The position numbers and the translations under genes are program-made. This document shows, piece after piece, positions 16,668-61,270 of a DNA stretch of 63,869 nucleotides (within the stretch, counting starts at the first letter, position 1; each line of letters begins with the position of its first letter). The stretch is from a virus. Its lineage: Duplodnaviria; Caudoviricetes. The stretch covers positions 1 to 63,869 of the IMG/VR virus record IMGVR_UViG_3300020469_000047; one strand, written 5' to 3'. The notes beneath the pieces were generated by a model, which ran no database searches, was not told the origin of the DNA, and saw only the letters and a program-made list of their open reading frames with translations.

Positions 16668-16682
16668 ATAAACGTATAAATA
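16663..16682 (+). promoter_or_regulatory. Two tandem perfect late promoters
   Basis: TATAAATA at 16663-16670 and 16675-16682 upstream of gp8. Confidence 0.8.
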
Positions 16683-21500: not shown

Positions 21501-24500
21501 TGGGGATGATACTAAGATTAAGTATTACTTCCGTAGAGATTTTGTAACTACTGCAACTACAGGTGGTGGTACAATTACATTTGCTGCACAGTTACCATTT
21601 GGTACACAAAGGTTTGCTGCATTTACCGAAGAGAATTATATTATTACTGTATTAGATCCTGGCGATGCACCTGATATTGTGAAAGGTGATATCATTTATG
21701 TTGGAGCAGATGTTGTAGATATATCATCTGCTACTGATACTGCTAGTGGTCTAACATCTGGTAGTATTAGTTTACAGTTAGCATCATCATATTTTGGAAC
21801 TATTCCTACTAATGGTGCTTATCCTAAACTTAAGTTAACTGCAACTCTAGAAGTATCTAATGCAAAACCAAGACTTAAAACTGTAGTAAAAAATAAGAGA
21901 ATTACAGTTACATCTGCTGGTGATCGTGTTGTTCCTTTAAGAGGTACTGACTACGATACTGAAGTTGTAGAGATACTTTCATATTCTGATGCATACAAGT
22001 TAAACTATGTTTATGAAGGAACATCAGCACAACCACCTGAGATTGATACTGCTGGTAATCTAATTTCTGGTACTGATGTTACATCAAGATATACATTTGA
22101 TAGTGGACAGAGAGATACGTTATATGATGTTTCTAGAGTAGTTTTAAAACCAGGTTTTGATGAGACTACAGGTCAACTTGTTATTTCTTTTGATTACTTT
22201 GAACATTCACAAGGTGACTTCTGTACAATTGATAGTTACTTACATGAAGCAGGAGTTTCTGAAGATGAGATTCCTACATTCGATTCTTCTGTTCTTGGTA
22301 TTACTGAACTTAAAAATGTAATTGATTTCAGACCTAAGGTTGACAGTGGTAGTATTATACCAGGTTTCTTAGATACTTCTACTTTAGAAGTAACTAATGG
22401 ATCTTTCTCTGGTGCTGGTGCAATTATTGCAAGTAGTCCTGCCCCTGATAAAGGTTTAGAATATACATTCTCATTCAGTCAAGTACAATACTTAGATCGT
22501 ATTGATGGTATCTTCTTAGACAAGAAAGGTAGTTTTATAGTTAAAGAAGGTAACTCATCTCTTAATCCTACAAAACCAGATGCGATAGAAGACGCAGTAC
22601 CATTATTCTATGCTTATATCCCTGCATTTACAAAGACAAGTAAAGACGTAAGACTTACCCCAGTTGATAATCGTCGTTATACAATGCGTGATATCGGTAA
22701 GTTAGAGAAACGTATTGAAAGATTAGAATACTATACAACACTTAGTATCCTAGAACAGCAAGCACTTAACATGCAAGTTAAGGATGAAATAGGTCTTGAT
22801 AGATTTAAGTCTGGTTTTGTTGTTGATAACTTTGAAGCACATAAAGTTGGTAATCTTAGATCACTTGATTATCGTTGTGCTGTTGATGCTCAACAATCTG
22901 TTCTTCGTCCACAGTCTAAAGAAGATTCTTTAGATTTAGTAGAAGTTAATAGAAGAGAAGATCAAAGAGCAGTTTCTGGATATAAAAAATCTGGAAACAT
23001 GGTAACGTTACCATATTCTCCATTATCATTATTAGGAAATAATTTCGCTTCATCAACACTAAATCCAAATCCATTTGTTGTTCTACAATATGTTGGTGAT
23101 AGTGATATATCTCCAGCGATAGATCAATGGTATGATTCTAGTATAGAACCAGTTGTTGTAGATACTAATACAGATCTCTTTAATATATTCTTAGCAAAAG
23201 AAAGTGTAAAAGAAAGTTTCTCCAGTTTACATAACTCATTTGTTATTAACTGGGTTGGAGCATCATCATCTTTTACTGCAATTAATTCTCTTGGTGGAGT
23301 TAATTCACAAATTGCTAACACATCTGTACAGAATGCATCTGTTGGTAGTTCTTCTAATATCAGTCCTCAAAATAATGAGGTTGGTAAGGGATTACAAACT
23401 AAATCTGTAGGTAATAGTATTGTTTCTACATCACTATCATTCTTTGCTAGAAGTGCACCTATCAAATTTAAAGTTGGTAGAATGAAACCTAATACTAGAA
23501 TATACGTGTTCTTAGAAGGTAGAGATGTTAGTCGTTGGGTTAACCCTGATCTTAGATATACAGGAATTGCAGGAAACTCATTATCAGCATTTAATGGTCC
23601 TATAACCACAGATGAATATGGTAATGCTAGTGGTTTAATTATTCTACCAGCTGGATCACCTCCTAATGAAAATGCTATTTGGGGTGGAGACATTGATACT
23701 GTTGGATATGATGCATCAGCAGAAGCATTGAATTTTACTGTTGGAACTCTTACATTTAGATTTACTTCTAGTTCTACTAACGAAGAAAAATCAAGTGTAG
23801 ATTCTTATACAGAAGTTAAGTATTATGCCACTGGTATTTTACCAGAAAATCCTTCTAGTATTGTTTCTACAAAACCATCTATATTCAAATCCAATGAAGG
23901 TGTTCAGTTAATTGAAAGTAATACTGACAATCCTGTAAGACCTAATCCTCTTGCACAGACATTTAAAGTAGAAAACTTAGATGGTGGTTGTTTTGTAACT
24001 GGTATTGATCTTTACTTCAATAAGAAAAGTGCAACTATACCAGTCAAAACTTATATTACAAATGTAGATGCTGAAAAACCAGCAAAAAATATTGTACCTG
24101 GTAGTGAAAAAACATTAACACCAAATACTTTCCTTAAATGTTTTGCTAGTGGTAACATGGCAATTTACAAAAATGAAAATGTTACTGGTGCATCTTCTAC
24201 TGCCTCAGGTCCTATACTTAAAGTATTTGATAAGAACAATGTAGAATTAGTTGCTACTGCATCTGGTAAGTATAGTCTTACTAATGAGCAAGTATATACT
24301 GTTGTTCTCAGTAATCATAATGGTAAATCATTTATACCAAATGAAGATTTAATTATCCCATCAGTAACTCTTGCAAATGCAACAGATGGTACTGATTTTA
24401 TTCTTTCTATTGCAAAAGATAGTGGAAAGTTATCTGATGTCAGAGTTACAAATACTGGTTTAAATTATGACAGTGCAATTCTTACTATTGAAAGTCCACA

Positions 24501-47661: not shown

Positions 47662-49318
47662 TACAAAACTACCTGAGGATTTCGTAGTAAACCAATTTAT
47701 TCCTTTTCTAAAAGAACATAAGGAATATATCTATGATATCTATTTTACATGTCGTATGCCACCCTTCACACAAGATGCGATGGGTGACGTAATTGATGGT
47801 GACATCAGAGAGACAACTTTAAATGCTTTGTTTGTGTCACAGGAGACTGGGATACCTTTGTCAGCAACATTCAATAATATCCAAGTAGATCCTACACAGG
47901 AGAACTTGGATATTTTTATTGAAAATTTTAGATTCTTATATGAGAACGGAGTTCGTATAGTTACTCTACCTCATACAACATGGATGTTGACTGGTCAAAT
48001 ACAGAAAGCATTTCCAGAGTTAAAAGTAAAGAATACTATTCTTAGAGAAGTTACTAGACCAAATGAAATAGTAAATCTTGCAAAGGCAGGATTCTATTAT
48101 ATTAATCTAGATAGAGACCTCATGCGTGATAGAGATTCTCTACTAAGAATTAAAAAAGCAAAGGAGTATTGTGCATCTATAGGTAAACCTGTTAAAGTAT
48201 CATTACTTTCTAATGAGTGGTGTTGGGGTGGATGTCCAATCATGCCAGAACATTATCATTACAATATGGTGAGAGAAAAAGATGATCCACAATATTTTAA
48301 TGATAGTATTAGTAGAGTGTCTTGTTCTACATGGGATGAGAAAGATCCTGCTGCATCATTAAAAGCAGCAACTATTCCTCCATGGAAAAAAGATTGGGAA
48401 GAGTTTATTGATCTTGGTATAGATGTATTTAAGATGCATGGAAGAGAAAATGCTATGCGTCTTATGGAAAGCATGACTATTATCAGTAGGTGGAAAAACA
48501 ATGAAGAGATTTTACATCCACAGTTTAATGATTATATTGAAGACGTATCTCTAGAAGAAAGACCTATTGATATATGGCGTGAAAAAATTAAGACTTGTAA
48601 GTTTGATTGTTGGGATTGTAATTACTGTGATTCTGTTGTTCAGTCTAGAATGAAAAAGAACGACAGACATTTTGATGATGATATCAAATTAGTATTAGAA
48701 TCTATTGATAAGGCAGCAAGAAAGGAGAGTAATTTTGTAGAAGAAGGATATAAGTATAAAGGTTTGTCATCAAATATAGTAAGACATTTTTTAAATAATT
48801 TGTTATCTAAACCAGATGCTATCTATATGGAACTTGGCGTTAATGCTGGTAGTACATTCTTTGCTGCTACTATGAATAGAGATGTAGAATCATTTGCTGT
48901 AGATAATTATTCTGAAAAAGAAATCTCACCATTCAGAGATGATGTAGAGGTAGAAGGATATGAAGACCCTAAGAAAATATTCTGGGCAGGACTACAAGAG
49001 AAACAATATTTTTGTGCTAAGACTATTCAAGATCTAACCCCTGCAAATGTACATAAACAACCTAATGTTATTTTCTATGATGCTGACCATGATCCACAAG
49101 CTCAGTTTGATAATCTTACATTTTTAATTCCATGTTTTGCTGACAAGTTTATTCTTGTTGTTGATGATGCAAACTTTATGGGAGTTGTGCAATCATGTGA
49201 ATTTTGGATTAAAGAAAATAAACTCAATTTATTGTTTGAGAGAAAAATTCTAACTAAGGTTCCAGAAGATCCTAATGGTTGGTGGAATGGTTTACATATT
49301 ATGGTTCTACAAAAATGA
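47636..49318 (+). CDS. U32-family-like Fe-S protein fused to a class I SAM-dependent methyltransferase
   Basis: INLDRDLMRD, NEWCWGGCP..H..SC, DVFKMHGR, CKFDCWDCNYC; then YMELGVNAGS, AVDN, IFYDADH, LVVDD. Confidence 0.75.
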   Translation: MASFSIPLNTKLPEDFVVNQFIPFLKEHKEYIYDIYFTCRMPPFTQDAMGDVIDGDIRETTLNALFVSQETGIPLSATFNNIQVDPTQENLDIFIENFRFLYENGVRIVTLPHTTWMLTGQIQKAFPELKVKNTILREVTRPNEIVNLAKAGFYYINLDRDLMRDRDSLLRIKKAKEYCASIGKPVKVSLLSNEWCWGGCPIMPEHYHYNMVREKDDPQYFNDSISRVSCSTWDEKDPAASLKAATIPPWKKDWEEFIDLGIDVFKMHGRENAMRLMESMTIISRWKNNEEILHPQFNDYIEDVSLEERPIDIWREKIKTCKFDCWDCNYCDSVVQSRMKKNDRHFDDDIKLVLESIDKAARKESNFVEEGYKYKGLSSNIVRHFLNNLLSKPDAIYMELGVNAGSTFFAATMNRDVESFAVDNYSEKEISPFRDDVEVEGYEDPKKIFWAGLQEKQYFCAKTIQDLTPANVHKQPNVIFYDADHDPQAQFDNLTFLIPCFADKFILVVDDANFMGVVQSCEFWIKENKLNLLFERKILTKVPEDPNGWWNGLHIMVLQK

Positions 49319-49881
49319 ATTCATTCAAACATCAGTATATGATAGTACATCTTGATGATGATTTCTTTCCACAATTAGAAAAAGCAATAGAACCATATCA
49401 AGATTATGAATCAGGTAAGACAGATCAATGGGATGGTAACAAATATCAAGCACAAGATAATAAAGATAGAAGTTCAAAGTTATGCTGGATAGACAATGAT
49501 GAAGTTTATGCAATGATGGATGGTCTTGTGTATTTTGCTAACAAACAATGTGGATGGGATTTAGATGTAGATTTTATAGAACCTTTACAACGTACAAAAT
49601 ATGATGTAGGTGATTTTTATGATTGGCATTGTGATGAGATGGGTTGGACAAAAGATAAGAGACCTGAGGGTAGGATACGTAAAATAAGTTTCACAGTTTT
49701 GTTGAATGATGATTTTGAAGGTGGTGAATTTGAAATACAGACAACTGAGAAAATTGTGGTACAATTAAAGAAGAGAGATGTAATAATATTTCATGCTGAT
49801 ACTCCACATAGAGTTAAACCAGTGACTAAAGGTGTTAGACATTCTCTCGTTGGGTGGACACAAGGACCTGCATATAAATGA
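49315..49881 (+). CDS. 2OG-Fe(II) oxygenase (PKHD/P4H-like)
   Basis: WHCD, RKIS, DFEGGEF, HRVKPVTKGVRHSLVGW; ATGA-coupled start at 49315. Confidence 0.9.
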   Translation: MNSFKHQYMIVHLDDDFFPQLEKAIEPYQDYESGKTDQWDGNKYQAQDNKDRSSKLCWIDNDEVYAMMDGLVYFANKQCGWDLDVDFIEPLQRTKYDVGDFYDWHCDEMGWTKDKRPEGRIRKISFTVLLNDDFEGGEFEIQTTEKIVVQLKKRDVIIFHADTPHRVKPVTKGVRHSLVGWTQGPAYK

Positions 49882-50441
49882 GATTTATAAAAGAATATAC
49901 ATTGAGTGATCTTGGTATATGTGATCGTCTTATAGATCTATACAAAGACGCCGATAAAAAAGATCTAACTTACGCTGGTCGTGTAGGTGGTGGAAGTGTT
50001 GTGCCTGAGATAAAAAAGAGTAGAGATTTTTTTATTGAAGATGCTGGTGCACTAGGAGAACCTAGTGATTATAAATTCGATCTATATCAAGAAGAGTTAA
50101 ATGGATTTATTGATAATTACTTGAACTCTTTGACTATTCACAATCAAGAATTTGTAATGCAAAGACTACCACAGATTCAATACTATAAACCAGGTGATGG
50201 TTTTTATACTTGGCATGTGGATGCATCAGGATCTGACGGGTGTGATAGAGCATTTGTATACATCACATATCTAAATGATGTTCCTAATGGAGGAACTGAA
50301 TTCTTTTATCAGGAATATAATGTAGAAGCAAAGAAAGGAAAAACATTAATTTTTCCTGCTGGACTTACCCATAAGCATAGAGGTGTGATATCAGAGGAAC
50401 ATGAGAAGTATATTTGTACAGGATGGCTTTGGTGGGTATGA
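49878..50441 (+). CDS. 2OG-Fe(II) oxygenase
   Basis: WHVD, YLNDV..GGTEF, IFPA..TH.HRG, KYI.TGW. Confidence 0.9.
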   Translation: MRFIKEYTLSDLGICDRLIDLYKDADKKDLTYAGRVGGGSVVPEIKKSRDFFIEDAGALGEPSDYKFDLYQEELNGFIDNYLNSLTIHNQEFVMQRLPQIQYYKPGDGFYTWHVDASGSDGCDRAFVYITYLNDVPNGGTEFFYQEYNVEAKKGKTLIFPAGLTHKHRGVISEEHEKYICTGWLWWV

Positions 50442-50965
50442 AAATTATAAAGAACTTTTTACCTAAACAATTACTTGATGCATGTGTAGACGACTTTAGA
50501 TCTAAGTTGAATACTGATTGCTGGTCATCTAGTAACTTTGCATGGAAACCATTTTTAAGACAGGGTATTCATGGATCAACTATTGCTACTGATATTCCTA
50601 AAGTATTCAGCGATGAGATATCAACACATTTAAAACCACATGCTGAGTTTAAGGAGTTGACATGTAGATATAATGTGTGGCAACCTGGTGCTGGTATTGG
50701 AATACATTCTGACACTCATCATTTGTTTGGTGCAACATTATATTTAAATGAACATTGGCATCCAAATGCTGGTGGTTGGTTTGTATGGATGGATCATGCT
50801 GATCTAAATCTAGATGAAGATTCAAATCAACCTGATGTATACAGAGCAGTTTTACCAGAGCAAAATATGTTAGTATTGAATGACTGTAGTGAAAGTCATC
50901 TAGTAACTACTGTTGGACATGATGCACCTGAGCATAGATATACAATTCAAATATGGGGTGATTAA
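50438..50965 (+). CDS. 2OG-Fe(II) oxygenase
   Basis: IHSD, TLYLNEHW..GG, HLVT, RYTIQ; ATGA-coupled start at 50438. Confidence 0.85.
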   Translation: MKIIKNFLPKQLLDACVDDFRSKLNTDCWSSSNFAWKPFLRQGIHGSTIATDIPKVFSDEISTHLKPHAEFKELTCRYNVWQPGAGIGIHSDTHHLFGATLYLNEHWHPNAGGWFVWMDHADLNLDEDSNQPDVYRAVLPEQNMLVLNDCSESHLVTTVGHDAPEHRYTIQIWGD

Positions 50966-51546
50966 TGAATAAACCTCACGTCATTTATAATGTATTATCT
51001 AAAGAAGAGATAATACCATTGTGGGATTACTTTGATCGTAAGTCTCCTTCTATGAGCACTCTTGCTACATGGACATTTAATAATGCATCTTATGGTAAAG
51101 GAGATCCAGTATCATGGCAACACCCATTAAGAACAGATTTAATATTTACTAAGTGTGCTACTACTATTAGATTAAAGATAATGAAATTTCTTAGGAGAGA
51201 TATAAAACTCTGTAAGATACATGCTAATGGACAGACAGCAGGACAAAATACAATGTTTCATAAAGACTGGGAAGAACATGGTGTGTGGACATTTATATAC
51301 TTTAATCAACCACATTGGGATCAGGAATGGGGTGGTGAATTTGTGTGTCAAACACCAGATGAAGAATATCATCACGTACCATACATACCCAATACAGGTG
51401 CATTACTTCCCTCAAACTGGTTGCATAAAGGACAACCACCTAACACATTGATAGGTAATGAGATCAGAACTACAATTGCTTTTTCATTTTGTGATCCTGA
51501 TATTCACGATAATATAATTGCACAGAATACAAGAAAATGGTACTAG
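50965..51546 (+). CDS. 2OG-Fe(II) oxygenase
   Basis: FHKD, W..EWGGE, LHKG.PP, RTTIAF. Confidence 0.85.
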   Translation: MNKPHVIYNVLSKEEIIPLWDYFDRKSPSMSTLATWTFNNASYGKGDPVSWQHPLRTDLIFTKCATTIRLKIMKFLRRDIKLCKIHANGQTAGQNTMFHKDWEEHGVWTFIYFNQPHWDQEWGGEFVCQTPDEEYHHVPYIPNTGALLPSNWLHKGQPPNTLIGNEIRTTIAFSFCDPDIHDNIIAQNTRKWY

Positions 51547-52052
51547 GAATTAGAGAATATCCAGTAGACATTGATGCAAATGAACTGGTAAAATTTATCG
51601 ACACTTCTGTTGAGGAGAGTGCTCTTACTAAAAATATGGCTCACGTATCTAAACTTACTTTCACTGATGGTAAAGATGACTTCTTAGAGTATGATGAACC
51701 TATTATTAAAAAATTAAAATGGTCATTTCACGATGCTTGTTCTAGATATTGGGGTATGGATATATTTGATTTCCAAATAAATTCATGGGTGTATGTAGAT
51801 TGGGATGATAATCCAATAGAACCATATATGCACTCACATAATCCAGAGAATCCTTTTACATTATCTGGTATAATGTATATAAAGTTAGGTGAGTCTGGAA
51901 CTACTATGTTCCCTATGCCAAAAAGAGATCCATATTTTTTACCTAAAAAAATGTTAACTTGGTTTATCTTTCCATCTAACCTACCACACATACCTGGCAA
52001 AGGTATTCAAAATGAAAAACGATACAGTTTAAGTGCTGACTTATACGCATGA
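51537..52052 (+). CDS. 2OG-Fe(II) oxygenase-like protein (HxH type)
   Basis: HSH, LSGIMYI, IFPSNLPH, RYSLS. Confidence 0.8.
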   Translation: MVLGIREYPVDIDANELVKFIDTSVEESALTKNMAHVSKLTFTDGKDDFLEYDEPIIKKLKWSFHDACSRYWGMDIFDFQINSWVYVDWDDNPIEPYMHSHNPENPFTLSGIMYIKLGESGTTMFPMPKRDPYFLPKKMLTWFIFPSNLPHIPGKGIQNEKRYSLSADLYA

Positions 52053-52645
52053 TGTACAGTCAAGATAGTTTCTCTTTTCTATCAGAGAAAATGCCACAAA
52101 ATTTATATCAAGAATTACTTTCTTACACACAGAGAAGAAGGAAGGAAGAGACTTGGAATTACAACAACAAACTTGCTGGTGCATTAGAACAACAATCTAG
52201 TTTATCTGATTGGAGTTCGCAGTTTGAAGAATATGTTGTTAGACTATCTACACAGTTATGGTCTCAGGTATATCAAACATGCCCGTGGGATTTTCAAGAT
52301 ACTAAAAATGTAACTCCTTTCATAAGACTAAGAAACCTATGGGTAAATTATCAGCAACAGTATGAATACAATCCTATACATACTCATTCTGGTATTGTAA
52401 GTTTTGTGATCTTTACAGATATACCATATGGTTCTGAAGAAAGAGAATCACATAATAGTAATGGTTCATTTCAATTAGAAGCAGATGTGCTTCCAGTAGA
52501 TAACTCTTGGAACGGTGTGATACTTATGTTTCCATCTACAACTAAACATGCTGTATATCCTTTCAAATCTACACAGAAAGAAAGGGTTACAGTATCTGGC
52601 AATTTGATATGGAATGTGGAGGGTGTAGATGAAGAACATTATTAA
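52049..52645 (+). CDS. 2OG-Fe(II) oxygenase-like protein (HxH type)
   Basis: WVNYQ..EYNPIHTH.G..SFV, FPS..KHAVYPF, RVTVSGN. Confidence 0.85.
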   Translation: MMYSQDSFSFLSEKMPQNLYQELLSYTQRRRKEETWNYNNKLAGALEQQSSLSDWSSQFEEYVVRLSTQLWSQVYQTCPWDFQDTKNVTPFIRLRNLWVNYQQQYEYNPIHTHSGIVSFVIFTDIPYGSEERESHNSNGSFQLEADVLPVDNSWNGVILMFPSTTKHAVYPFKSTQKERVTVSGNLIWNVEGVDEEHY

Positions 52646-53171
52646 AGACAATTGTATCAATCCTAACTATCAAAATCTTCTAGAGAGCACTATGAGATAT
52701 GATACAGATTTTAGGTGGGTGTATCATGACAATCTTAGTGAAGATGGTGAGAGTCAGTTAGTAGGTTTCTCTCATATGTTTATATTGAATGGTAATTCTA
52801 CAAGTAAATACTCTGGATTGTTTCTTCCATTAGTATTTGAAGCATGTCATAACACAGGCATATCAATATCAAAGGTCATACGTGGTAGATGTTTTTTACA
52901 AACGCCAGGTGTAAGAACAAAAGAGTATGATTCTATGCATGTTGACCTACCAGATCCACATTTGACATGCCTATATTATGCATCAAACAGTGATGGTGAC
53001 ACGTATTTTAGCGAAAGGATGTACGGAGAACCGCTTGCTGAATATGGTATAAATAGTAGAGTATCTCCTATAAAAGGTAGATGCGTTTTCTTTGATGGTC
53101 TACGATTTCATTCGAGTAGTAAACCAACAGAAAAACCTCGATTCGTAATAAACTTTAATTTCATACCCTGA
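52629..53171 (+). CDS. 2OG-Fe(II) oxygenase
   Basis: MHVD, LYY..SDGDT, FFDG..FHSSS.P, RFVINFN (same subfamily as 1250..1744). Confidence 0.85.
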   Translation: MKNIIKDNCINPNYQNLLESTMRYDTDFRWVYHDNLSEDGESQLVGFSHMFILNGNSTSKYSGLFLPLVFEACHNTGISISKVIRGRCFLQTPGVRTKEYDSMHVDLPDPHLTCLYYASNSDGDTYFSERMYGEPLAEYGINSRVSPIKGRCVFFDGLRFHSSSKPTEKPRFVINFNFIP

Positions 53172-55106: not shown

Positions 55107-55906
55107 TGTTAGGATCACACTTTTACAACCAGATAGTTCGTAAGAACATCATAGCATTTGGAACACTCTTCAATAATATTACACTGAAGAGCACAGATCC
55201 AAGCACTGGTGCTGTATTAGAAGAATTAAAAGTACCGTTGGCATACGGTCCTAAACAAAAATTTATTGTACGTTTAGAAGAGAACGCTAGTTCTAGAAAA
55301 GTAGCGATTACTTTACCTAGACTGTACTTTGAAATGACAAGTATTGATTATGATCCTACCCGTAAAACTTCTCCTATACAAAAATATAAAACAATTATCA
55401 ATGGGAATCAAGAAGAGGTAAGAGTACAGTACGTTCCCGTGCCATACAACTTATCATTTGAACTTGGTGTCATGGCAAAGTCACAGGACGATGCTCTACA
55501 AATTACTGAGCAGATACTACCATACTTCCAACCATCATTCTCTGTAACTCTTAACATGATTCCTGATATGAATGAGAAGAGAGATATTGCTGTTGTATTA
55601 AACAATGTATCATACGAAGATACATGGGACGACAGTTTCTATGAACGTAGATACATCATCTATACTTTACAGTTCCAGATGAAGACTTATCTATACGGTC
55701 CTTACAACACATCAGATGTTATTAAGAAAGCAATCATACATGAAACACTTGGTGATACTGCAACTAGTCGTAGAACTATTACTAGAACATATACACCAAA
55801 AGCAAAAACAGATATCAATAGTGATGGTCAGATAGATGCTGCTGATGACGTATTAGTAGATGCTGGTGATGACTTTGGATTTAATGAAGGGATAGAATTC
55901 TTATGA
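55106..55906 (+). CDS. gp15: Tail terminator / sheath stabiliser gp15
   Basis: FGTLFNNI, VPLAYGPKQKF, LPR..FE, PVPYN, EQILPYFQP. Confidence 0.95.
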   Translation: MLGSHFYNQIVRKNIIAFGTLFNNITLKSTDPSTGAVLEELKVPLAYGPKQKFIVRLEENASSRKVAITLPRLYFEMTSIDYDPTRKTSPIQKYKTIINGNQEEVRVQYVPVPYNLSFELGVMAKSQDDALQITEQILPYFQPSFSVTLNMIPDMNEKRDIAVVLNNVSYEDTWDDSFYERRYIIYTLQFQMKTYLYGPYNTSDVIKKAIIHETLGDTATSRRTITRTYTPKAKTDINSDGQIDAADDVLVDAGDDFGFNEGIEFL

Positions 55907-56304
55907 ACCTAGAAGATAATATGGAAGAACTTCTTAACATGGAAGTAGAACCAGTGACAAAACCTAATATTCCTAAAGTAAAATCTAAGGAAGATGATCT
56001 AGAGAAAGACTATGAATATACTCGTGGAGAGTTATACTCTCTCATAGATCAGGGTCAGGAGGCAGTCAGAGGAGCGTTAGAGGTTGCACAGGAAAGTGGG
56101 CATCCAAGAGCATATGAAGTTGCTGTAGCAGCAATGAAGCATGTTTCAGATATGACTGAAAAATTACAAGACTTACATAAAAAAATGAAGGATATTTCTG
56201 CAGAGGAGAGAGGTCCTAGTAAGGTTACTAACAACGCTATGTTTGTTGGTAGCACTACAGAGTTACAAAAAATGCTTAAAGAAATGGGTGGTGGCAAGAG
56301 ATAG
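55903..56304 (+). CDS. gp16: Terminase small subunit gp16
   Basis: DYEY.R..LY, A.ES.HPRAYEV, NNA.FVGST.ELQK. Confidence 0.95.
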   Translation: MNLEDNMEELLNMEVEPVTKPNIPKVKSKEDDLEKDYEYTRGELYSLIDQGQEAVRGALEVAQESGHPRAYEVAVAAMKHVSDMTEKLQDLHKKMKDISAEERGPSKVTNNAMFVGSTTELQKMLKEMGGGKR

Positions 56305-56307
56305 TAG

Positions 56308-56315
56308 CATAAATA
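56308..56315 (+). promoter_or_regulatory. Late promoter
   Basis: CATAAATA 24 nt upstream of 56340. Confidence 0.65.
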
Positions 56316-56339: not shown

Positions 56340-56651
56340 ATGAGATACAAAGAATTTAAAAGACTCGCTGAGTCTGCCAATGTGCAGGATAACGGAATTT
56401 TAGAAGGTGCAGCCTGGACAAAGAAGGCTGGCAAGAACAAAGAAGGTGGACTTAATGAGAAGGGTAGGAAGTCTTACGAAAGATCAAATCCTGGATCTGA
56501 CCTTAAAGCACCAAGCAAGAAGGTTGGAAATCCCCGTAGAGCATCATTCTGTTCTAGAATGAAGGGAATGAAAAAGAAATTAACTTCAAAGAAAACTGCC
56601 AGTGATCCTGATAGTAGGATCAATAAATCACTAAGAGCTTGGAATTGCTAA
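56340..56651 (+). CDS. Basic conserved phage protein (DUF6321-like), possible internal head protein
   Basis: AW....GK...GGLN.KG, RR.SFC.RM.G, SLR.W.C. Confidence 0.8.
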   Translation: MRYKEFKRLAESANVQDNGILEGAAWTKKAGKNKEGGLNEKGRKSYERSNPGSDLKAPSKKVGNPRRASFCSRMKGMKKKLTSKKTASDPDSRINKSLRAWNC

Positions 56652-56703
56652 CACAACGTGTAATGTGATATAATATTGAGTATAATTATAGTATGAATAC
56701 CTA

Positions 56704-56865
56704 ATGAGAAAAATGCGTCTTAACAATGGCGATGTTCAATATCTAATCAGAGCTTGTTTGGTCTACCAAGAGCAGACAGGATCGGAAGATATATGGGAAA
56801 AATACGATGATTTAATTAATAAACTCAGAGTTTATTCAGACCAAAATTTGACCCCATCAGAATAA
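56704..56865 (+). CDS. 53-aa hypothetical protein (not in ORF track)
   Basis: MRKMRLNNGDVQYLIRACLVYQEQTGSEDIWEKYDDLINKLRVYSDQNLTPSE; TATAAT boxes upstream at 56671 and 56681. Confidence 0.75.
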   Translation: MRKMRLNNGDVQYLIRACLVYQEQTGSEDIWEKYDDLINKLRVYSDQNLTPSE

Positions 56866-57041
56866 TGAAACTTAGAACAAGATTTGAAACTTTCTCTACG
56901 CAAGAAAGACAGATGCTTGCGGAAGCAATTTGGAGAAGGCAGAGATGTTATATTGCTGGTGATAAACTCTTCAATGAGTATGGCAAGATGTTGTCAGAAG
57001 TCCTAGACAAAATGGATTACATGCCAGGCAGAGTAGTATAA
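56865..57041 (+). CDS. 58-aa hypothetical protein (not in ORF track)
   Basis: MKLRTRFETFSTQERQMLAEAIWRRQRCYIAGDKLFNEYGKMLSEVLDKMDYMPGRVV; TAATG-coupled. Confidence 0.75.
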   Translation: MKLRTRFETFSTQERQMLAEAIWRRQRCYIAGDKLFNEYGKMLSEVLDKMDYMPGRVV

Positions 57042-57044
57042 ATA
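57037..57044 (+). promoter_or_regulatory. Late promoter for heme oxygenase
   Basis: Perfect TATAAATA 12 nt upstream of the ho1 ATG. Confidence 0.65.
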
Positions 57045-57056
57045 CCTATTAATATT

Positions 57057-57758
57057 ATGTTCAGTAAAGAATTAAAAGAAGCAACTAAGGAATCTCATTC
57101 CGCAGCAGAGAATACAAAATTTGTTGCAGGATTTCTTAGAGGGGTTGTTGACCCAGAGGAGTACCGTAAACTAATTGCCAACTTCTGGTATGTTTATAGT
57201 ACTATGGAAAAACTAATCAATGATTCTGAAGACCCAACTGTAAGAATATTACAGGGATGGCAATCAGAACTTGATCGTAGTCAATCATTGGAAAAGGATC
57301 TAGTATATTATTACGGTCCTTATTGGAAAGAGAAGATAGAGTCTTCACCAGCATGTGATACCTATTGTTCTAGACTAACTGAATTAGCACAAGAAGATCC
57401 ATATCTTCTACTTGCTCATCATTATACTAGGTACATAGGTGATCTATCAGGTGGACAAATTCTTTGTAAAATAGCAAAGAGTGCACTCAATCCTCCTGCA
57501 GGAGAGGGTTTAAATTTCTACGAATTTCCTGAGATTCATGATGCTAAAGAATGGAAAACAACTTATAGGGCAGTCCTTGATCAATTAGATTTAGATCTAT
57601 CACAAAAGAATGCTGTGTTTGTAGAAGCAAATCATGCGTTTAAATTAAACATGTATATGTTTGATGAAATTAAATCTGAAGATCCTTACCCTGTGATGAC
57701 AGCACTATATGGTTTCTGGAAAGTAATTACTGGTTCTATTACAAACAAAGGAAAATGA
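57057..57758 (+). CDS. ho1: Heme oxygenase (biliverdin-producing)
   Basis: LKEATKESHSAAEN (proximal His), LLAHHYTRYIGDLSGGQIL signature, EAN.AF.LNM. Confidence 0.95.
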   Translation: MFSKELKEATKESHSAAENTKFVAGFLRGVVDPEEYRKLIANFWYVYSTMEKLINDSEDPTVRILQGWQSELDRSQSLEKDLVYYYGPYWKEKIESSPACDTYCSRLTELAQEDPYLLLAHHYTRYIGDLSGGQILCKIAKSALNPPAGEGLNFYEFPEIHDAKEWKTTYRAVLDQLDLDLSQKNAVFVEANHAFKLNMYMFDEIKSEDPYPVMTALYGFWKVITGSITNKGK

Positions 57759-57859
57759 AAAACTTACCATTTAAATCATCATGTATAATATTTGGTTTAA
57801 TTATTGGAACAGGAACATTCCTCATACCAGTAGCGTGGGCACATCCTATATTAGTGTGA
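57755..57859 (+). CDS. 34-aa hydrophobic peptide (not in ORF track)
   Basis: MKNLPFKSSCIIFGLIIGTGTFLIPVAWAHPILV; ATGA-coupled to ho1, abuts next ATG. Confidence 0.6.
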   Translation: MKNLPFKSSCIIFGLIIGTGTFLIPVAWAHPILV

Positions 57860-58390
57860 ATGTTTAATACTTTATTATTTGGAGTTGGGTTATCTCAATT
57901 TCACCTCAGTGATATTGATAATGAAAAAATCTCAGATCTAGTTAGATCAGGAGACGACCATAGAAATTTGGATATTTCTGATCCATCATTATCAGAGTTA
58001 AATTGTCGCATCTTAAAAGAAGGCAAACTTATATTAAACTCAACCTGTAAAAGCAAAGAGTTAAAGATAAAAAAAGTTTGGTGTAATTACAATTTCAATA
58101 AAGATATAGAAGAACCACATAATCATAGAAATAGTTTTTTGTCTGCTATTTACTATCCACTATCTACTGATGGAGTAATACAATTTTTCTCTCCATTCTC
58201 TGATTATTTTCTATCACAAATACCTATCGAAGATGTATATGATATGAACTGCTATAACTCTAGTTTCTATGAGTTGCCAGTTAGATCTGGTGACTTAGTA
58301 ATATTTAATTCAATGCTCTACCATAGAGCAAAACTATCCACAGATGAACGGATATCAATAGCGTATGATATTAATATCAAATCATGGTAG
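57860..58390 (+). CDS. 2OG-Fe(II) oxygenase-like protein (HxH, TIGR02466-like)
   Basis: W.N...PHNH..LSAIYY, GDLVIF.S.L.H, RISIAY. Confidence 0.85.
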   Translation: MFNTLLFGVGLSQFHLSDIDNEKISDLVRSGDDHRNLDISDPSLSELNCRILKEGKLILNSTCKSKELKIKKVWCNYNFNKDIEEPHNHRNSFLSAIYYPLSTDGVIQFFSPFSDYFLSQIPIEDVYDMNCYNSSFYELPVRSGDLVIFNSMLYHRAKLSTDERISIAYDINIKSW

Positions 58391-58509
58391 TCTGGGGAGT
58401 CATATGGATGGTTGGAATACTGGTCATAATAGTGACTTGGTACATCTACTATATACTAAAGATGTCATTTATGGAGATGAAAGATGGGAGCGATGACACC
58501 ACCAAGTAG
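58384..58509 (+). CDS. 41-aa single-TM protein (not in ORF track)
   Basis: MVVWGVIWMVGILVIIVTWYIYYILKMSFMEMKDGSDDTTK. Confidence 0.65.
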   Translation: MVVWGVIWMVGILVIIVTWYIYYILKMSFMEMKDGSDDTTK

Positions 58510-58945
58510 GAAGTCCTGCTATAACTTTAGAGTAACGGAGATTAACCGTGTTCTTGACGGCGATACTATTGATGTCACCATTGATCTTGGGTTTGACTTA
58601 TACAAGAAAGAAAGAGTTAGAATTGCAGGAATTGATACGCCAGAGAAAAGAACTAGAGACTTGGAAGAAAAGGCATTGGGAATAGATGCAACTAATTATC
58701 TAAAGAAGAAACTAGAGGACACAATAGCAGGAGATGAAGAACTCACCATCAGAACCGAACTTAAAGGGGGCATGGGTAAGTATGGTCGTCTTCTTGGGTG
58801 GTTGTATATTGGCGAGGATACTCTTTCCGTAAATGAAGTTATGATTGACGAAGGGTACGCATGGTGCTATGATGGAGGCACTAAGCAAAAAAATTTCGAG
58901 GAGCTACGTGAGATACGTAGATCTTTCGGTACACTTACTGAATAA
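58484..58945 (+). CDS. Thermonuclease (SNase-like) family nuclease
   Basis: RVLDGDTID, RVRIAGIDTPE, KYGRLLG, N..MI.EGYA. Confidence 0.9.
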   Translation: MGAMTPPSRKSCYNFRVTEINRVLDGDTIDVTIDLGFDLYKKERVRIAGIDTPEKRTRDLEEKALGIDATNYLKKKLEDTIAGDEELTIRTELKGGMGKYGRLLGWLYIGEDTLSVNEVMIDEGYAWCYDGGTKQKNFEELREIRRSFGTLTE

Positions 58946-59384: not shown

Positions 59385-59617
59385 TGAATGAGATTACAGT
59401 ATTCGTTTACTTAGTATTCTTTGTTGCATTGTTTGGAATGACGTTTGCATTTATGTTTAAGATGATGGGTTCTGTCTTGTCGGATATAGATAGAAAACCT
59501 GTCAATAGTTATGGTGATGCAATGAGAGCATATAAACCTCATCCAGAAATGAAAGATGTTAAAGATGGAGATGAACTACTAGTATTCAAGTCGTTAGAAG
59601 ACCTTGAAGATAAATAA
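59384..59617 (+). CDS. Small membrane protein, DUF2973-like
   Basis: N-terminal TM helix and HPEM....GDELLV motif. Confidence 0.75.
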   Translation: MNEITVFVYLVFFVALFGMTFAFMFKMMGSVLSDIDRKPVNSYGDAMRAYKPHPEMKDVKDGDELLVFKSLEDLEDK

Positions 59618-59620
59618 GGT

Positions 59621-61270
59621 ATGGCAATTACTGATGTATATCTAGGTAACCCCAACCTTAAGAAGGCGGGTACTCCTATACAGTTTACAAAGAAGCAAGT
59701 TAATGAATGGATCAAATGTAAAAAAGATCCAATATATTTTGCTACTCATTATATAAAAATAATCAACTTAGATGAAGGTCTAGTTCCTTTTGACATGTAT
59801 GATTTTCAGAAAAAAATCTTAGAAGATTTTCATAACAATAGATTTAACATCGCAAAACTACCTCGTCAAACAGGTAAGAGTACTACTGTTGTGGCTTACC
59901 TATTATATTATGCTATCTTTTATGACAGTGTTAACATTGGTATACTCGCTAACAAGGCAAGTACTGCAAGAGAACTACTTGGAAGACTTCAATTAGCATA
60001 TGAGAATCTACCAAAATGGATGCAACATGGAATATTAGTTTGGAACAAAGGTAATGTCGAACTTGAAAACGGATCTAAAATACTCGCTGCTTCTACATCT
60101 GCTAGTGCAGTTAGAGGTATGTCCTTCAACATTCTATTCCTTGACGAGTTTGCATTCGTCCCTAACCATGTCGCAGAGCAATTCTTTGCCTCGGTTTATC
60201 CTACTATTACTTCTGGTAAATCAACTAAAGTCATAATTATATCTACACCCAATGGTATGAACCACTTCTATAAGATGTGGGAAGATGCTAGAAACGATAA
60301 GAATGATTATATAACTAACGAAGTTCATTGGTCTCAGGTACCTGGTAGAGATAAGAAGTGGAAAGATGAGACAATAAAGAACACATCTAAAAGACAATTT
60401 GCACAGGAGTTTGAATGCGACTTCCTAGGATCTGCTGATACACTTATCAGTCCATCTAAATTACAATGCATTCCGTTCAATGACCCAATTAGAAGCAATG
60501 CAGGACTTGATGTTTATGAGAGAGCAGAAGAAGATCACGAATATATTATTACTGTCGATGTTGCCAGAGGAATTGGTGGCGACTATTCTGCTTTCATCGT
60601 GTTTGATATCACCACTCTCCCGTACAAGATCGTTGCGAAGTACAGAAATAATGAGATTAAACCTGTACTGTTTCCCTCGGTCATATTTCAAGTAGCAAAG
60701 GAATATAATAATCCTTATATACTTGTCGAGGTAAACGACGTAGGTGATCTTATAGCAGCAACACTAAACTATGATCTAGAATATCCTAACGTACTCATGT
60801 GTGCCATGAGAGGTAGGGCAGGGCAGATAGTAGGACAAGGATTCTCAGGTAACAAAACACAACTAGGTGTCAAGATGAGTGTAACTGTCAAGAAGATCGG
60901 TTGCTCCAATCTCAAAGCTATTATTGAAGAAGATAAGTTATTGTTTAATGACTTCCAAATCTTTCAAGAGTTAACTACGTTTGTACAAAAGAAACAAGCA
61001 TGGGAAGCAGACGAAGGTTATCATGATGATCTAGTCATGTGTATGGTATTGTTTGCATGGTTAGTCATGCAAGAGTATTTTAAAGAGATGACTGACCAAG
61101 ATATAAGAAGAAGAATATATGAAGAACAGAGAAATCAAATAGAACAAGACATGGCACCATTTGGTTTTATAGATGATGGTATGGGAGATGATACATTTGT
61201 AGATGCTGATGGATCATTCTGGTACGGAGATAAAGAAGAAACGGTTGATTATATGATTCCTGATTTGTAA
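59621..61270 (+). CDS. gp17: Terminase large subunit gp17
   Basis: YLGNPNLK, Walker A PRQTGKST, Walker B LFLDEFAF, STPNG, VDVARG, HDDLVM. Confidence 0.98.
   Translation: MAITDVYLGNPNLKKAGTPIQFTKKQVNEWIKCKKDPIYFATHYIKIINLDEGLVPFDMYDFQKKILEDFHNNRFNIAKLPRQTGKSTTVVAYLLYYAIFYDSVNIGILANKASTARELLGRLQLAYENLPKWMQHGILVWNKGNVELENGSKILAASTSASAVRGMSFNILFLDEFAFVPNHVAEQFFASVYPTITSGKSTKVIIISTPNGMNHFYKMWEDARNDKNDYITNEVHWSQVPGRDKKWKDETIKNTSKRQFAQEFECDFLGSADTLISPSKLQCIPFNDPIRSNAGLDVYERAEEDHEYIITVDVARGIGGDYSAFIVFDITTLPYKIVAKYRNNEIKPVLFPSVIFQVAKEYNNPYILVEVNDVGDLIAATLNYDLEYPNVLMCAMRGRAGQIVGQGFSGNKTQLGVKMSVTVKKIGCSNLKAIIEEDKLLFNDFQIFQELTTFVQKKQAWEADEGYHDDLVMCMVLFAWLVMQEYFKEMTDQDIRRRIYEEQRNQIEQDMAPFGFIDDGMGDDTFVDADGSFWYGDKEETVDYMIPDL

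Follow-up and report, generated by a model that had tools for sequence, protein, structure and literature searches.

The island between g16 and g17

The window analyzed here is the whole of a 63,869-nucleotide record, which amounts to about 33% of a phage genome, covers the structural block only, and has a G+C content of 36.0%. The phage belongs to an uncultured and widespread lineage of T4-like cyanomyoviruses. A heme oxygenase gene, ho1, is found between g16 and g17, which encode the small and large terminase subunits, with the neck genes before this region and those for sheath and tube after it. All features described below lie on the plus strand. The left border of this variable island is g16 (55903-56304; DNA_Packaging, 4.8e-10; phrog_445, 7.5e-52), and the right border is g17 (59621-61270; Terminase_6N, 2.3e-25; Terminase_6C, 6.7e-13), whose ATG is preceded at a distance of 4 nt by the box GATAAATA (59609-59616). 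The interval between these two genes is a known site for auxiliary genes.

A late-promoter-like box, CATAAATA (56308-56315), stands 24 nt before the first gene of the island, which encodes a DUF6321 protein of 103 residues (56340-56651; PF19846, 1e-23), and the NATAAATA motif in this position is kept in 21 of 21 aligned sequences, loci L022 and L085 included. The intergenic gap that follows (56652-56703) has a palindromic TATAATTATA core, likewise kept in all 21 sequences. The best sigma-70-like site in the island, TTGCTA-18-TATAAT, occupies 56645-56674; its -10 hexamer is not conserved in about half of the relatives, and in the gap it is the second TATAAT, not the first, that is kept in 21 of 21 sequences. 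Sigma-70-like promoters in the island were set aside as a class, since they are found at the level expected by chance (14 versus 17 +/- 3.9). Two conserved cyanophage small proteins are encoded next, one of 53 residues (56704-56865; phrog_5190, 9.1e-23) and one of 58 residues (56865-57041; phrog_2064, 1.7e-25), and ho1 follows.

The stop codon of ho1 shares an ATGA overlap with the start of a hydrophobic 34-residue ORF (57755-57859), which every one of the 20 loci in the lineage carries and none of the other 56. No Pfam or PHROG match was found for this ORF, and the product is likely a single-pass membrane peptide. Beyond it lies a 2OG-Fe(II) oxygenase gene of 176 codons (57860-58390; PF13759, 1.6e-11). 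In 15 loci of the lineage this oxygenase follows the 34-residue ORF as the next large ORF after ho1; in 5 it is missing, and one contig, from run X2, joins position 57855 to 58384, omitting it. The oxygenase gene is thus a cassette that is present or absent within the lineage. A staphylococcal-nuclease-like endonuclease gene (58484-58945; PF00565, 4.9e-12; phrog_452, 3.2e-71) lies farther downstream, and no terminator-like site above chance was found between ho1 and g17.

Identity of the heme oxygenase

The ho1 reading frame (57057-57758) runs from an ATG at 57057 to a TGA stop codon at 57756-57758 and encodes 233 residues. Residues 2-204 match the Pfam profile Heme_oxygenase, PF01126, with an E-value of 2.7e-66 and a score of 223.7 bits against a curated cut-off of 23, covering positions 3-204 of the 204 in the profile, and a six-frame search of the window with the same profile agrees with the ORF-based result. 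Residues 3-207 match HO-1 of Synechocystis (PDB 1WE1; E-value 1.1e-53), and two regions, the heme-ligand helix SH(S)xAEN and YTRYIGDLSGGQ, align with the solved structure, the latter being identical or nearly so to 1WE1. His14 lines up with the SHS-motif histidine of 1WE1 and does not vary across 31 aligned sequences; nor do G128, D129, L130, S131, G132 and G133 of the GDLSGG helix. From structures of the family, we take His14 to be the proximal histidine ligand of heme in the first helix, and the GDLSGGQ stretch is presumably the glycine-rich distal helix of the HO-1 family. An AlphaFold2 model is all-helical, with a mean pLDDT of 87.2 and a pTM of 0.83. Values of dN/dS against four relatives fall between 0.12 and 0.15. 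Judged by sequence, then, the gene encodes an HO-1-type heme oxygenase, a cyanophage auxiliary metabolic gene, that is under purifying selection and has its catalytic motifs intact. In this family, heme is opened to biliverdin IXalpha at the expense of O2 and reduced ferredoxin, and Fe(II) and CO are set free.

The sequence-only reading that preceded this analysis had described an amphipathic C-terminal extension. The peptide in question, PVMTALYGFWKVITG, is indeed present, but it does not constitute an extension. The match to phrog_17328, the profile of the phage family, takes in residues 1-229, a comparable tail follows the conserved NMYMFDEI motif in 76 of 76 phage ho1 loci examined, and the overall lengths are similar: 240 residues with homology to residue 208 for 1WE1, 233 residues with homology to residue 207 for the phage protein. 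On this comparison of phage Ho1 sequences and the length of 1WE1, the tail is a family-wide trait.

A scan of genome contigs for cellular Ho1 returned a single match, 91% identical, and retrieved no cyanobacterial Ho1. The matching copy sits close to one end of a contig of 2.57 Mb that bears the label of a Gammaproteobacteria metagenome-assembled genome.

Among cultured phages, tblastn identity to this Ho1 is 63.9% for P-RSM6, 59% for MED4-213, P-HM1 and P-HM2, 50% for P-SSM2 and P-SSM5, and 43% for S-SSM7 and S-SSM6a. The nearest cultured Ho1 sequences, at no more than 64%, therefore come from Prochlorococcus phages, whereas the nearest cultured relatives of the g17-g18 region by megablast are Synechococcus phages, at about 77% nucleotide identity. 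With the two signals pointing to different hosts, the Prochlorococcus host named earlier for this phage is an assumption.

Genomic neighborhoods of ho1

The gene moves among at least five neighborhoods: nrdA-nrdB, thyX, psbA/hli, other auxiliary-gene clusters, and the g16-g17 island. Across the 76 loci it directly follows nrdA in 23, three of which have nrdB next, and a 2OG-Fe(II) oxygenase gene lies directly downstream of it in six and directly upstream in two. A bilin reductase gene accompanies ho1 on the one complete ho1-bearing record and on six other contigs; on two of the reductase-bearing contigs, where Ho1 is 83-84% identical to ours by tblastn, the reductase is encoded about 3.3 kb downstream. 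A reductase directly adjoining ho1 was seen in none of the five cultured-phage contexts inspected, and such separation is usual for cyanomyovirus ho1.

A conserved late-type box upstream of ho1

The octamer TATAAATA at 57037-57044 is an exact 8-bp match to the T4-type late promoter box. It is separated from the ho1 ATG by exactly 12 nt, the spacer CCTATTAATATT (57045-57056), in which 10 of 12 positions are A or T, so that an A/T-rich segment directly downstream of the box is present. The box also overlaps the TAA stop codon (57039-57041) of the upstream 58-residue ORF, and the stop codon within it raises the prior chance of finding such a box here. By raw count TATAAATA is not enriched in the window, with six occurrences on both strands against 8.6 +/- 2.9 expected. 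Its placement is what stands out. All six copies of TATAAATA, and all 13 copies of the core ATAAATA, are on the coding strand, with none on the other. Ten of the 13 ATAAATA words precede a called start by 4-60 nt, versus 24 of 329 (7.3%) for controls, namely the other 20 words that can be built from five A and two T (p about 1e-9 in a binomial test). Since the non-coding strand and the gene interiors of the window are purged of ATAAATA, a perfect box that arose by accident in a transcribed gap between genes would be unusual.

Conservation points the same way. Among 21 sequences, the window plus 20 related metagenomic loci, none of the 20 positions of box and spacer varies, and neither do any of the first 21 nt of ho1, while 22-27% of sites vary elsewhere (47 of 172 in the upstream ORF and 155 of 699 in ho1) and 28 of 57 third codon positions of the upstream ORF are variable. 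The box is not a chance occurrence: its placement is non-random and its sequence is conserved. The strand and position statistics, together with this conservation, make a genuine late promoter signal of the gp55 type very probable. If the box corresponds to positions -13 to -6, following the geometry of gp55-type boxes and start sites and the A/T-rich downstream criterion given in the accessible part of Geiduschek and Kassavetis (2010), transcription would begin near 57050 and leave a 7-nt leader. The genes for the factors involved, g55, g33 and g45, are absent from the window with its third or so of the genome; since g55 is reported in all sequenced cyanomyoviruses in the available text of Clokie et al. 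(2010), this phage may be presumed to have the gp55 factor.

Other features of the box invite caution. Its 12-nt distance to the ATG is shorter than the 23-54 nt of most boxes in the window, and shorter than the 20-35 nt usual for boxes before Late (E) genes in P-HM2. Sister locus L022, which has the same upstream gene and an Ho1 85% identical to that of the window, lacks the box through an 11-nt indel, which means that ho1 is maintained there without it. Outside the lineage ATAAATA occurs within 70 nt of the ho1 start in 0 of 56 loci. RNA libraries, represented by assembled contigs of four runs, include contigs that bridge the box (X2 record 10, 56493-57181, and X6 record 28, 56940-57264) and cover ho1. 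Such contigs show presence only, not starts, strand or timing, with DNA carry-over possible, and uncovered bins in X5 and X6 are uninformative.

Timing in P-HM2 as a calibration

The expression classes determined for P-HM2 (Thompson et al. 2016, S2 Table) allow the meaning of such boxes to be calibrated. Twenty-one P-HM2 genes have ATAAATA 4-60 nt upstream, and these comprise 15 Late (E), four Mid (C), two Mid (B), and no Early genes. Expression of the Late class sets in about 2.5 h into a latent period of 8 h, and PHM2_110-115, which include the g16-g17 gap genes PHM2_111-114, are Late E or D (Thompson et al. 2016). The six box-bearing genes that are middle include psbA and PHM2_208. The latter is the co-oriented gene directly preceding P-HM2 ho1 (PHM2_209), and it has a GATAAATA box 23 nt upstream; nevertheless PHM2_208 was classed as Mid (B) and ho1, in light as in dark, as Mid (C) (Thompson et al. 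2016). The ho1 unit of P-HM2 thus carries a NATAAATA box and yet was measured as middle, and the analogy for the timing of ho1 points both ways. The P-HM2 Late class also contains non-structural genes, uvsY, uvsW and regA among them (Thompson et al. 2016), so late timing does not imply association with the virion.

Proposed role and alternatives

We consider it likely that this is a functional ho1 housed in the late packaging module, provided with a late promoter of its own and serving its usual cytoplasmic role. An ordinary cyanophage auxiliary gene would have been relocated into the g16-g17 island, where a gp55-type promoter would start RNA near 57050, with a short leader that lacks a Shine-Dalgarno sequence. 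Transcription would most likely have two origins, one being read-through from the conserved box ahead of the DUF6321 gene and the other the internal box, and the latter probably also drives the 34-residue peptide, the 2OG-Fe(II) oxygenase, the nuclease and small ORFs and helps to sustain g17 expression beyond the insertion. One would expect middle-to-late or late timing. In the cytoplasm the enzyme could furnish biliverdin to host or phage bilin reductases and possibly release iron, functions that would not be virion-related.

The strongest rival holds that the box is conserved for some other reason, or is only weakly active, and that in practice ho1 is a middle gene, as it is in P-HM2, transcribed by read-through from promoters farther upstream. 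Possible other roles for the box are its overlap with a stop codon and with translation initiation, or a processing or regulatory site. The Mid (C) class of P-HM2 ho1 despite a box before PHM2_208, the retention of ho1 without the box in L022, the conserved TATAAT-containing gap about 380 nt upstream, and the RNA-library contigs that span the box all fit this alternative, as does the invariance extending 21 nt into ho1, which a constraint on translation initiation would also produce. Against it stand the purging of ATAAATA from the non-coding strand and gene interiors of the window, the 15 of 21 box-bearing P-HM2 genes that are Late (E), and the late expression of the P-HM2 genes in the g16-g17 gap. 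We regard it as unlikely, if to be taken seriously.

A further proposal concerns benefit rather than timing and is compatible with a late ho1 in its usual role: the main gain might be iron salvage, supplying Fe(II) from degraded heme to phage iron enzymes. For this window the candidates would be its eight or nine 2OG-Fe(II) oxygenases, for other lineages the di-iron NrdB. Seven oxygenase paralogs stand in tandem at 49315-53171, ho1 neighbors nrdA/nrdB or 2OG-Fe(II) oxygenase genes in many of the 76 loci, and the accessible portions of Fuchsman et al. (2023) include an entry "Iron acquisition?" and have ho1-bearing myophages reach their largest proportion (~0.6) at stations deemed iron-limited, a pattern that the same portions call unclear. 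That an iron-supply role has been under discussion is also noted in the available text of a 2024 Nature Communications paper. The argument from adjacency is weak, however, given how widespread 2OG-Fe(II) oxygenases are among cyanophages and how auxiliary genes gather in islands; the adjoining oxygenase gene is absent from 5 of the lineage's 20 loci, two of which have an Ho1 100% identical to that of the window, and the seven records that pair a bilin reductase with ho1 also count against the proposal. As the principal benefit, iron salvage seems distinctly improbable.

More specific, and very improbable in our estimate, is a version in which ho1 has been rewired, out of the pigment and nucleotide-metabolism settings with middle genes that it has elsewhere, to the late module with a late promoter of its own, mainly to recycle iron for an unusually large oxygenase battery, with the 34-residue peptide tethering or targeting the enzyme. 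Late in infection Ho1 would then strip host heme of its Fe(II); the membrane peptide would be co-translated with ho1, and the battery would consist of the seven tandem genes at 49.3-53.2 kb and the gene beside ho1, with perhaps another at 1250-1744.

The sequence-only reading had joined its observations in another way. It had correctly seen a perfect late box 12 nt before the ho1 ATG, the position of the gene inside the morphogenesis block, and the lack of an adjacent bilin reductase gene, and from these it went on to phage-made bilin destined for phycobiliprotein-like domains of virion proteins in the window. The late-promoter signal and the late location hold; the step to virions does not. 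No match to the phycobiliprotein domain PF00502 occurs in the six frames of the window even at E <= 10, and Pfam and PDB sequence searches detect no such domain. The window has no match to CpeT, a six-frame search of all of it with PF05996 is empty, and no gene of the pcyA, pebS or cpeT type is found within the 63,869 bases, about 33% of the genome, nor does the only long sister contig, G001 (74.8 kb), which spans largely the same structural region, carry any bilin reductase. Bilin-related Pfam domains are absent from 53 ORFs, among them four giant structural ORFs in which Pfam finds only YHYH and DUF4815; two smaller structural ORFs match gp8 and gp6. PDB sequence searches of the giant ORFs return only a DUF4815 protein and nothing bilin-related, and the remaining 30 ORFs likewise show nothing bilin-related. 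Phycobiliproteins do not use biliverdin itself as their chromophore: a reductase, and usually also a lyase, is required. Supply of bilin to virion proteins by a late ho1 is therefore scarcely credible: it can draw on the late-type box, the structural-block location, and the statement in the accessible text of Sullivan et al. (2010) that the role of Prochlorococcus-phage bilin genes is unresolved, and it is opposed by these searches, by the non-structural members of the P-HM2 Late class, by the boxless L022, and by the P-HM2 ho1 unit, boxed yet middle.

The locus opens no new biological principle, and the sequence gives the idea of pigmented virions no backing. As an auxiliary gene of cyanophages ho1 is known, and whether its benefit lies in pigment or in iron is debated; what the present lineage adds is a strongly conserved late-type promoter that it acquired, or kept, by way of an 11-nt indel. 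The box-bearing loci and the boxless L022 form a natural pair in which promoter gain can be set against the timing of an auxiliary gene.

Comparison with known systems

The Ho1 proteins of cultured cyanomyoviruses belong to the same family and share the length and C-terminal tail seen here, and that of P-SSM2 is reported to work in vitro (Dammeyer et al. 2008, cited from the accessible text of Sullivan et al. 2010). Their genes are placed differently: in the psbA/hli region in P-HM2, MED4-213 and P-SSM2, near talC and split in S-SSM7, and in the order nrdA-ho1-nrdB in P-RSM6, and in none of the cultured phages inspected is ho1 between g16 and g17 as it is here. HO-1 of Synechocystis sp. PCC 6803 (1WE1) resembles the phage protein in its heme-ligand and GDLSGG helices, which align, and in length (240 versus 233 residues), but it is a cellular enzyme whose tail past residue 208 cannot be aligned. 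The hemO-pcyX and hemO-pcyA cassettes of uncultured marine and freshwater phages, as described in the available part of the 2024 Nature Communications paper, also include a biliverdin-making phage heme oxygenase; there the reductase gene is adjacent, whereas none was found in the 64 kb here.

The promoter signal has close parallels. With T4 late promoters (TATAAATA, dependent on gp55, gp33 and gp45) and the NATAAATA motif of cyanophages S-PM2 and Syn9, as described in the available portions of Geiduschek and Kassavetis (2010) and Clokie et al. (2010), it shares a perfect 8-bp box, an A/T-rich segment after the box, placement on the coding strand and a position ahead of a late-module gene. Compared with these systems, the gap of 12 nt between box and ATG is shorter than most. 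For the island itself the closest counterpart is the Synechococcus phage ACG-2014i, in which the same flanking genes, gp13-gp16 and gp17-gp19, enclose a gap with small ORFs and a nuclease; that gap carries petE, whereas the one described here carries ho1, the 34-residue membrane peptide and the 2OG-Fe(II) oxygenase.

Gene content of the window

All substantial ORFs called in the window, whose 63,869 bases are one entire IMG/VR record estimated to hold about 33% of a genome, lie on the + strand, and the G+C content is 36.0%. They include genes for baseplate proteins gp25, gp6 and gp8 and a run of 2OG-Fe(II) oxygenases, four giant ORFs of 1,832 to 3,655 aa, tail-fibre-like genes, and genes for gp13, gp14, gp15, the g16 small terminase, the g17 large terminase, endonuclease VII, the gp18 sheath and the gp19 tube. 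Together these ORFs make up the block of a T4-like cyanomyovirus that encodes its structure and DNA packaging. The 2,700-aa ORF at 18589-26691 contains a DUF4815 domain, and a PDB search matches it to a DUF4815 protein of 1,152 aa with a solved structure (PDB 9EUF, 3.1e-22). Just upstream of gp13, seven 2OG-Fe(II) oxygenase-like genes follow one another in tandem at 49315-53171; a further one beside ho1 (57860-58390) and a weak ninth candidate (1250-1744) bring the count to 8 or 9 in 64 kb, whereas in Table 3 of Sullivan et al. 2010 a complete cyanomyovirus genome has five at most. Some of these carry the PHROG label 'DNA endonuclease V' against Pfam 2OG-FeII_Oxy_3 or _5.

Across g17-g18, the closest cultured relatives are Synechococcus phages ACG-2014i/j/e and S-CAM4, at ~77% nucleotide identity, with 85 of the 87 matching records belonging to Synechococcus phages and two to Prochlorococcus phages. 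The closest cultured Ho1 proteins, by contrast, come from Prochlorococcus phages (P-RSM6, 63.9%; MED4-213, P-HM1 and P-HM2, 59%; P-SSM2, 50%). Relatives therefore do not fix the host, and Prochlorococcus, named as host in the sequence-only reading, is an assumption.

Identity of ho1

The 233-aa ORF with its ATG at 57057 (57057-57758), taken earlier for a heme oxygenase gene, is one. Its product matches Pfam PF01126 (2.7e-66, residues 2-204), the phage family profile phrog_17328 (5.8e-106, residues 1-229, which takes in the tail) and Synechocystis HO-1 (1WE1; 1.1e-53), and both His14 in the first helix and the distal-helix motif YTRYIGDLSGGQ line up with the solved Synechocystis enzyme and are invariant across a 31-sequence alignment. 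An AlphaFold2 model built from that alignment is all-helical, with a mean pLDDT of 87.2. Against four relatives dN/dS comes to 0.12-0.15, and ho1 is an intact gene that purifying selection maintains. The C-terminal peptide PVMTALYGFWKVITG exists, but its description as an extension does not hold, as a tail alike in length and character follows the conserved NMYMFDEI motif in 76 of 76 phage loci (e.g. GDAGKSLWKILWNTIRGK). Homology stops at residue 208 of the 240-aa Synechocystis HO-1 and at 207 of the 233-aa Ho1 here, and in the model residues 212-229 form a helix of low confidence (pLDDT 57-70). The tail is a family trait, with no addition special to the window's gene.

The late-promoter-like box upstream of ho1

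As first noticed in the sequence, TATAAATA stands at 57037-57044, with the 12 bases CCTATTAATATT separating it from the ho1 ATG; the box contains the TAA stop (57039-57041) with which the preceding 58-aa ORF ends. Over both strands of the window TATAAATA shows no raw enrichment (6 copies, 8.6 +/- 2.9 expected). The coding strand holds 6 of 6 copies, and 13 of 13 copies of the core ATAAATA, while the opposite strand holds none. Ten of the thirteen core copies lie 4-60 nt upstream of a gene start in our own ORF calls (binomial p ~1e-9), against a pooled 24 of 329 (7.3%) for the other 20 words of five A and two T, whose minus-strand counts are 3-27 each. Because both placement and strand are biased, as a real promoter signal would show, ATAAATA is kept before genes and purged elsewhere, and the box is a well-supported candidate late-type promoter signal.

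In T4 late promoters the TATA box has 8 bp and lies roughly a helical turn ahead of the start; its first base is at -13, and A/T-rich DNA comes next (Geiduschek & Kassavetis 2010). Applied here, this geometry would put the ho1 start near 57050, with a 7-nt leader and no space for a Shine-Dalgarno sequence. The 12-nt gap is short compared with those of the window's other boxes (23, 24, 24, 35, 38, 41, 53 and 54 nt, and one of 4 nt at g17) and with those of Late (E) boxes in P-HM2, a cultured Prochlorococcus phage with published expression classes (mostly 20-35 nt, one 5 nt). Two perfect TATAAATA boxes at 16663-16682, 12 nt apart start to start and 41 and 53 nt before gp8, look like a tandem late promoter. 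Just 4 nt separate the GATAAATA box at 59609-59616 from the g17 ATG, and use of this box would make transcripts begin at or within the start codon, giving a leaderless g17 mRNA or an internal-start message.

A Ho1 protein scan of IMG/VR yielded 79 loci, for 76 of which upstream DNA was inspected. TATAAATACCTATTAATATT-ATG is unchanged in all 20 closest loci (L002-L021, Ho1 86-100% identical), which form the lineage of the window; none of the remaining 56 has ATAAATA 70 nt or less from the ho1 start. When the window is aligned with its lineage (17 distinct rows among 21), variable positions number 0 of 20 in box and spacer and 0 of 21 in the first 21 nt of ho1, compared with 47 of 172 in the upstream ORF (28 of 57 third codon positions) and 155 of 699 in ho1; the probability of 0/20 at coding-region rates is 0.002-0.007. 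In the sister locus L022 (Ho1 85% identical, same upstream gene), an 11-nt indel takes out exactly the box (...GTGGTTTAATATTATG), so the box marks a gain or loss specific to one lineage, and ho1 is maintained even where it is missing. One ho1 copy (L085), 91% identical and sharing both box and upstream genes, sits less than 10 kb from an end of a 2.57-Mb contig that bears the label of a Gammaproteobacteria MAG; chimeric assembly or mis-binning of cyanophage DNA is the most likely cause.

The g16-g17 island

The island, a variable gene set between g16 and g17, is encoded on the + strand. A CATAAATA box at 56308-56315, conserved in 21 of 21 aligned sequences, is followed by a DUF6321 gene (Pfam). 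The conserved gap before a 53-aa ORF (56652-56703) has a palindromic core, TATAATTATA here and ACTATAATTATAGT in most relatives, which is kept in 21 of 21 aligned sequences while the surrounding DNA varies; this core may act as a -10 element or bind a protein. Two small conserved ORFs lie between this gap and the ho1 box, which ho1 follows. The start of a 34-aa hydrophobic ORF (57755-57859; MKNLP...AWAHPILV) overlaps the ho1 stop (ATGA). This ORF has no Pfam or PHROG match and occurs in 20 of 20 lineage loci, its C-terminal AWAHPILV invariant, and in 0 of 56 other ho1 loci; its product may be a membrane partner of Ho1. A 2OG-Fe(II) oxygenase gene (57860-58390), a staphylococcal-nuclease-like gene and three small ORFs come next, and the GATAAATA box before g17 is last in the order. 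The oxygenase gene is a present/absent cassette: in five loci (L002, L003, L013, L014, L019) the nuclease gene directly follows the 34-aa ORF, and a contig from sequencing run X2 connects 57855 to 58384 with 5 other letters in between. Terminator-like sites between ho1 and g17 do not rise above chance. The simplest reason for the arrangement would be that internal late boxes keep the island and g17 transcribed, ho1 being merely the first gene behind one of them.

Expected timing of expression

The P-HM2 genome and gene table were rebuilt, and genes with ATAAATA 4-60 nt upstream were listed against the class given for each gene in S2 Table of Thompson et al. 2016. The 21 box-bearing genes comprise 15 Late (E), 4 Mid (C), 2 Mid (B) and no Early or Late (D) genes, or 0/20 of class A, 2/49 of B, 4/88 of C, 0/34 of D and 15/51 of E, so that ATAAATA predicts late expression well, though not perfectly, in this phage. 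Middle-class exceptions include psbA and PHM2_208, a gene with GATAAATA 23 nt before it and its end 2 bases before P-HM2 ho1 (PHM2_209); in light and dark alike, PHM2_208 is Mid (B) and PHM2_209 Mid (C) (Thompson et al. 2016). Genes of S-PM2 and Syn9 that have both early and late promoters act as 'middle' (Clokie et al. 2010), a view that the boxed middle genes of P-HM2 would fit. In P-HM2, g16 belongs to Late (E) and g17 to Late (D), and the four genes of the gap between them are classed Late E, D, D and D (Thompson et al. 2016). Motif and position together make it probable that the window's ho1 is expressed late or middle-to-late.

Twelve of the 20 run rows containing all or part of the region are recorded as RNA. 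One RNA-library contig (X1 record 3, 57351-57912) covers ho1 with 0 mismatches, and two others, X2 record 10 (56493-57181) and X6 record 28 (56940-57264), bridge the box. Because such contigs carry no start, strand or level information, and DNA is possible in these libraries, the bridging is merely compatible with read-through and decides nothing.

Iron and bilin as possible benefits

Heme oxygenase releases Fe(II), and a minority, non-exclusive reading holds that iron is the benefit of phage ho1. The nrdA-ho1-nrdB neighbourhoods, the unusually many 2OG-Fe(II) oxygenase genes in the window and the occurrence of ho1 beside such oxygenases in three separate contexts fit this reading, although auxiliary genes cluster anyway, and the adjoining oxygenase gene is missing in 5 of 20 lineage loci, two of them with identical Ho1. 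For ho1, Fuchsman et al. 2023 give 'Iron acquisition? Phytobilin biosynthesis' and report the ho1-bearing myophage share as highest at South Pacific stations regarded as iron-limited, a pattern called unclear; a 2024 Nat Commun paper also notes discussion of an iron-supply role.

In the window, no frame matched Fe_bilin_red (PF05996), nor CpeT (PF06206) or phycobiliprotein (PF00502) at E <= 10. A bilin reductase is present on 7 of 50 ho1 contigs, which we picked from 79 with long ones favoured; these include the sole complete record (G031). In G003 and G004 (Ho1 83-84% identical, tblastn) it lies ~3.3 kb downstream. Absence from the other contigs is uninformative because most are small fragments. 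Pfam scans returned only YHYH and DUF4815 for the four giant ORFs, and gp8 and gp6 domains for two smaller structural ORFs; PDB sequence searches with the giant ORFs returned only the DUF4815 protein, and the remaining 30 ORFs gave nothing bilin-related. The observation of ho1 behind a late-type box is real, but the idea built on it, that late ho1 supplies bilin to phycobiliprotein-like virion domains, is unsupported, since these sequence-level searches of the window found no such domain and biliverdin becomes a phycobiliprotein chromophore only after the action of a reductase and, as a rule, a lyase.

Comparison with other ho1 neighbourhoods

Neighbours, defined as the nearest ORF of at least 60 aa, were clustered and Pfam-scanned for 76 loci. 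In 23 loci nrdA lies directly upstream of ho1, in most cases so close that its stop and the ho1 ATG overlap, and nrdB is next in 3. The DUF6321 gene is the upstream neighbour in 19 (18 of the lineage plus L022; upstream DNA was too short for a call in two further lineage loci). Upstream thyX occurs in 12, six of these with a 2OG-Fe(II) oxygenase downstream, and downstream psbA in 4. A 2OG-Fe(II) oxygenase lies upstream in 2; the other contexts, with NAD synthase, purN or plastocyanin as neighbours, occur once or twice each. The commonest phage arrangement is ho1 wedged between nrdA and nrdB (23 loci among L027-L064; P-RSM6 is L086), and the ATG on the nrdA stop (tgtaATG in most cases) suggests translational coupling to ribonucleotide reductase.

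In each of five cultured phages (P-RSM6, P-HM2, MED4-213, P-SSM2, S-SSM7), ho1 lies outside the g16-g17 gap and has no bilin reductase adjoining it, so the lack of one beside the window's ho1 is ordinary. What the window carries is an ordinary cyanophage ho1 whose location is unusual yet unsurprising. Whereas the window has ho1 between g16 and g17, P-RSM6 has it between nrdA and nrdB, P-HM2, MED4-213 and P-SSM2 have it in the hli/psbA region, and S-SSM7 has it near talC and split. The g16-g17 gap itself is a usual site for auxiliary genes: ACG-2014i, for one, has petE, a nuclease gene and small ORFs there.
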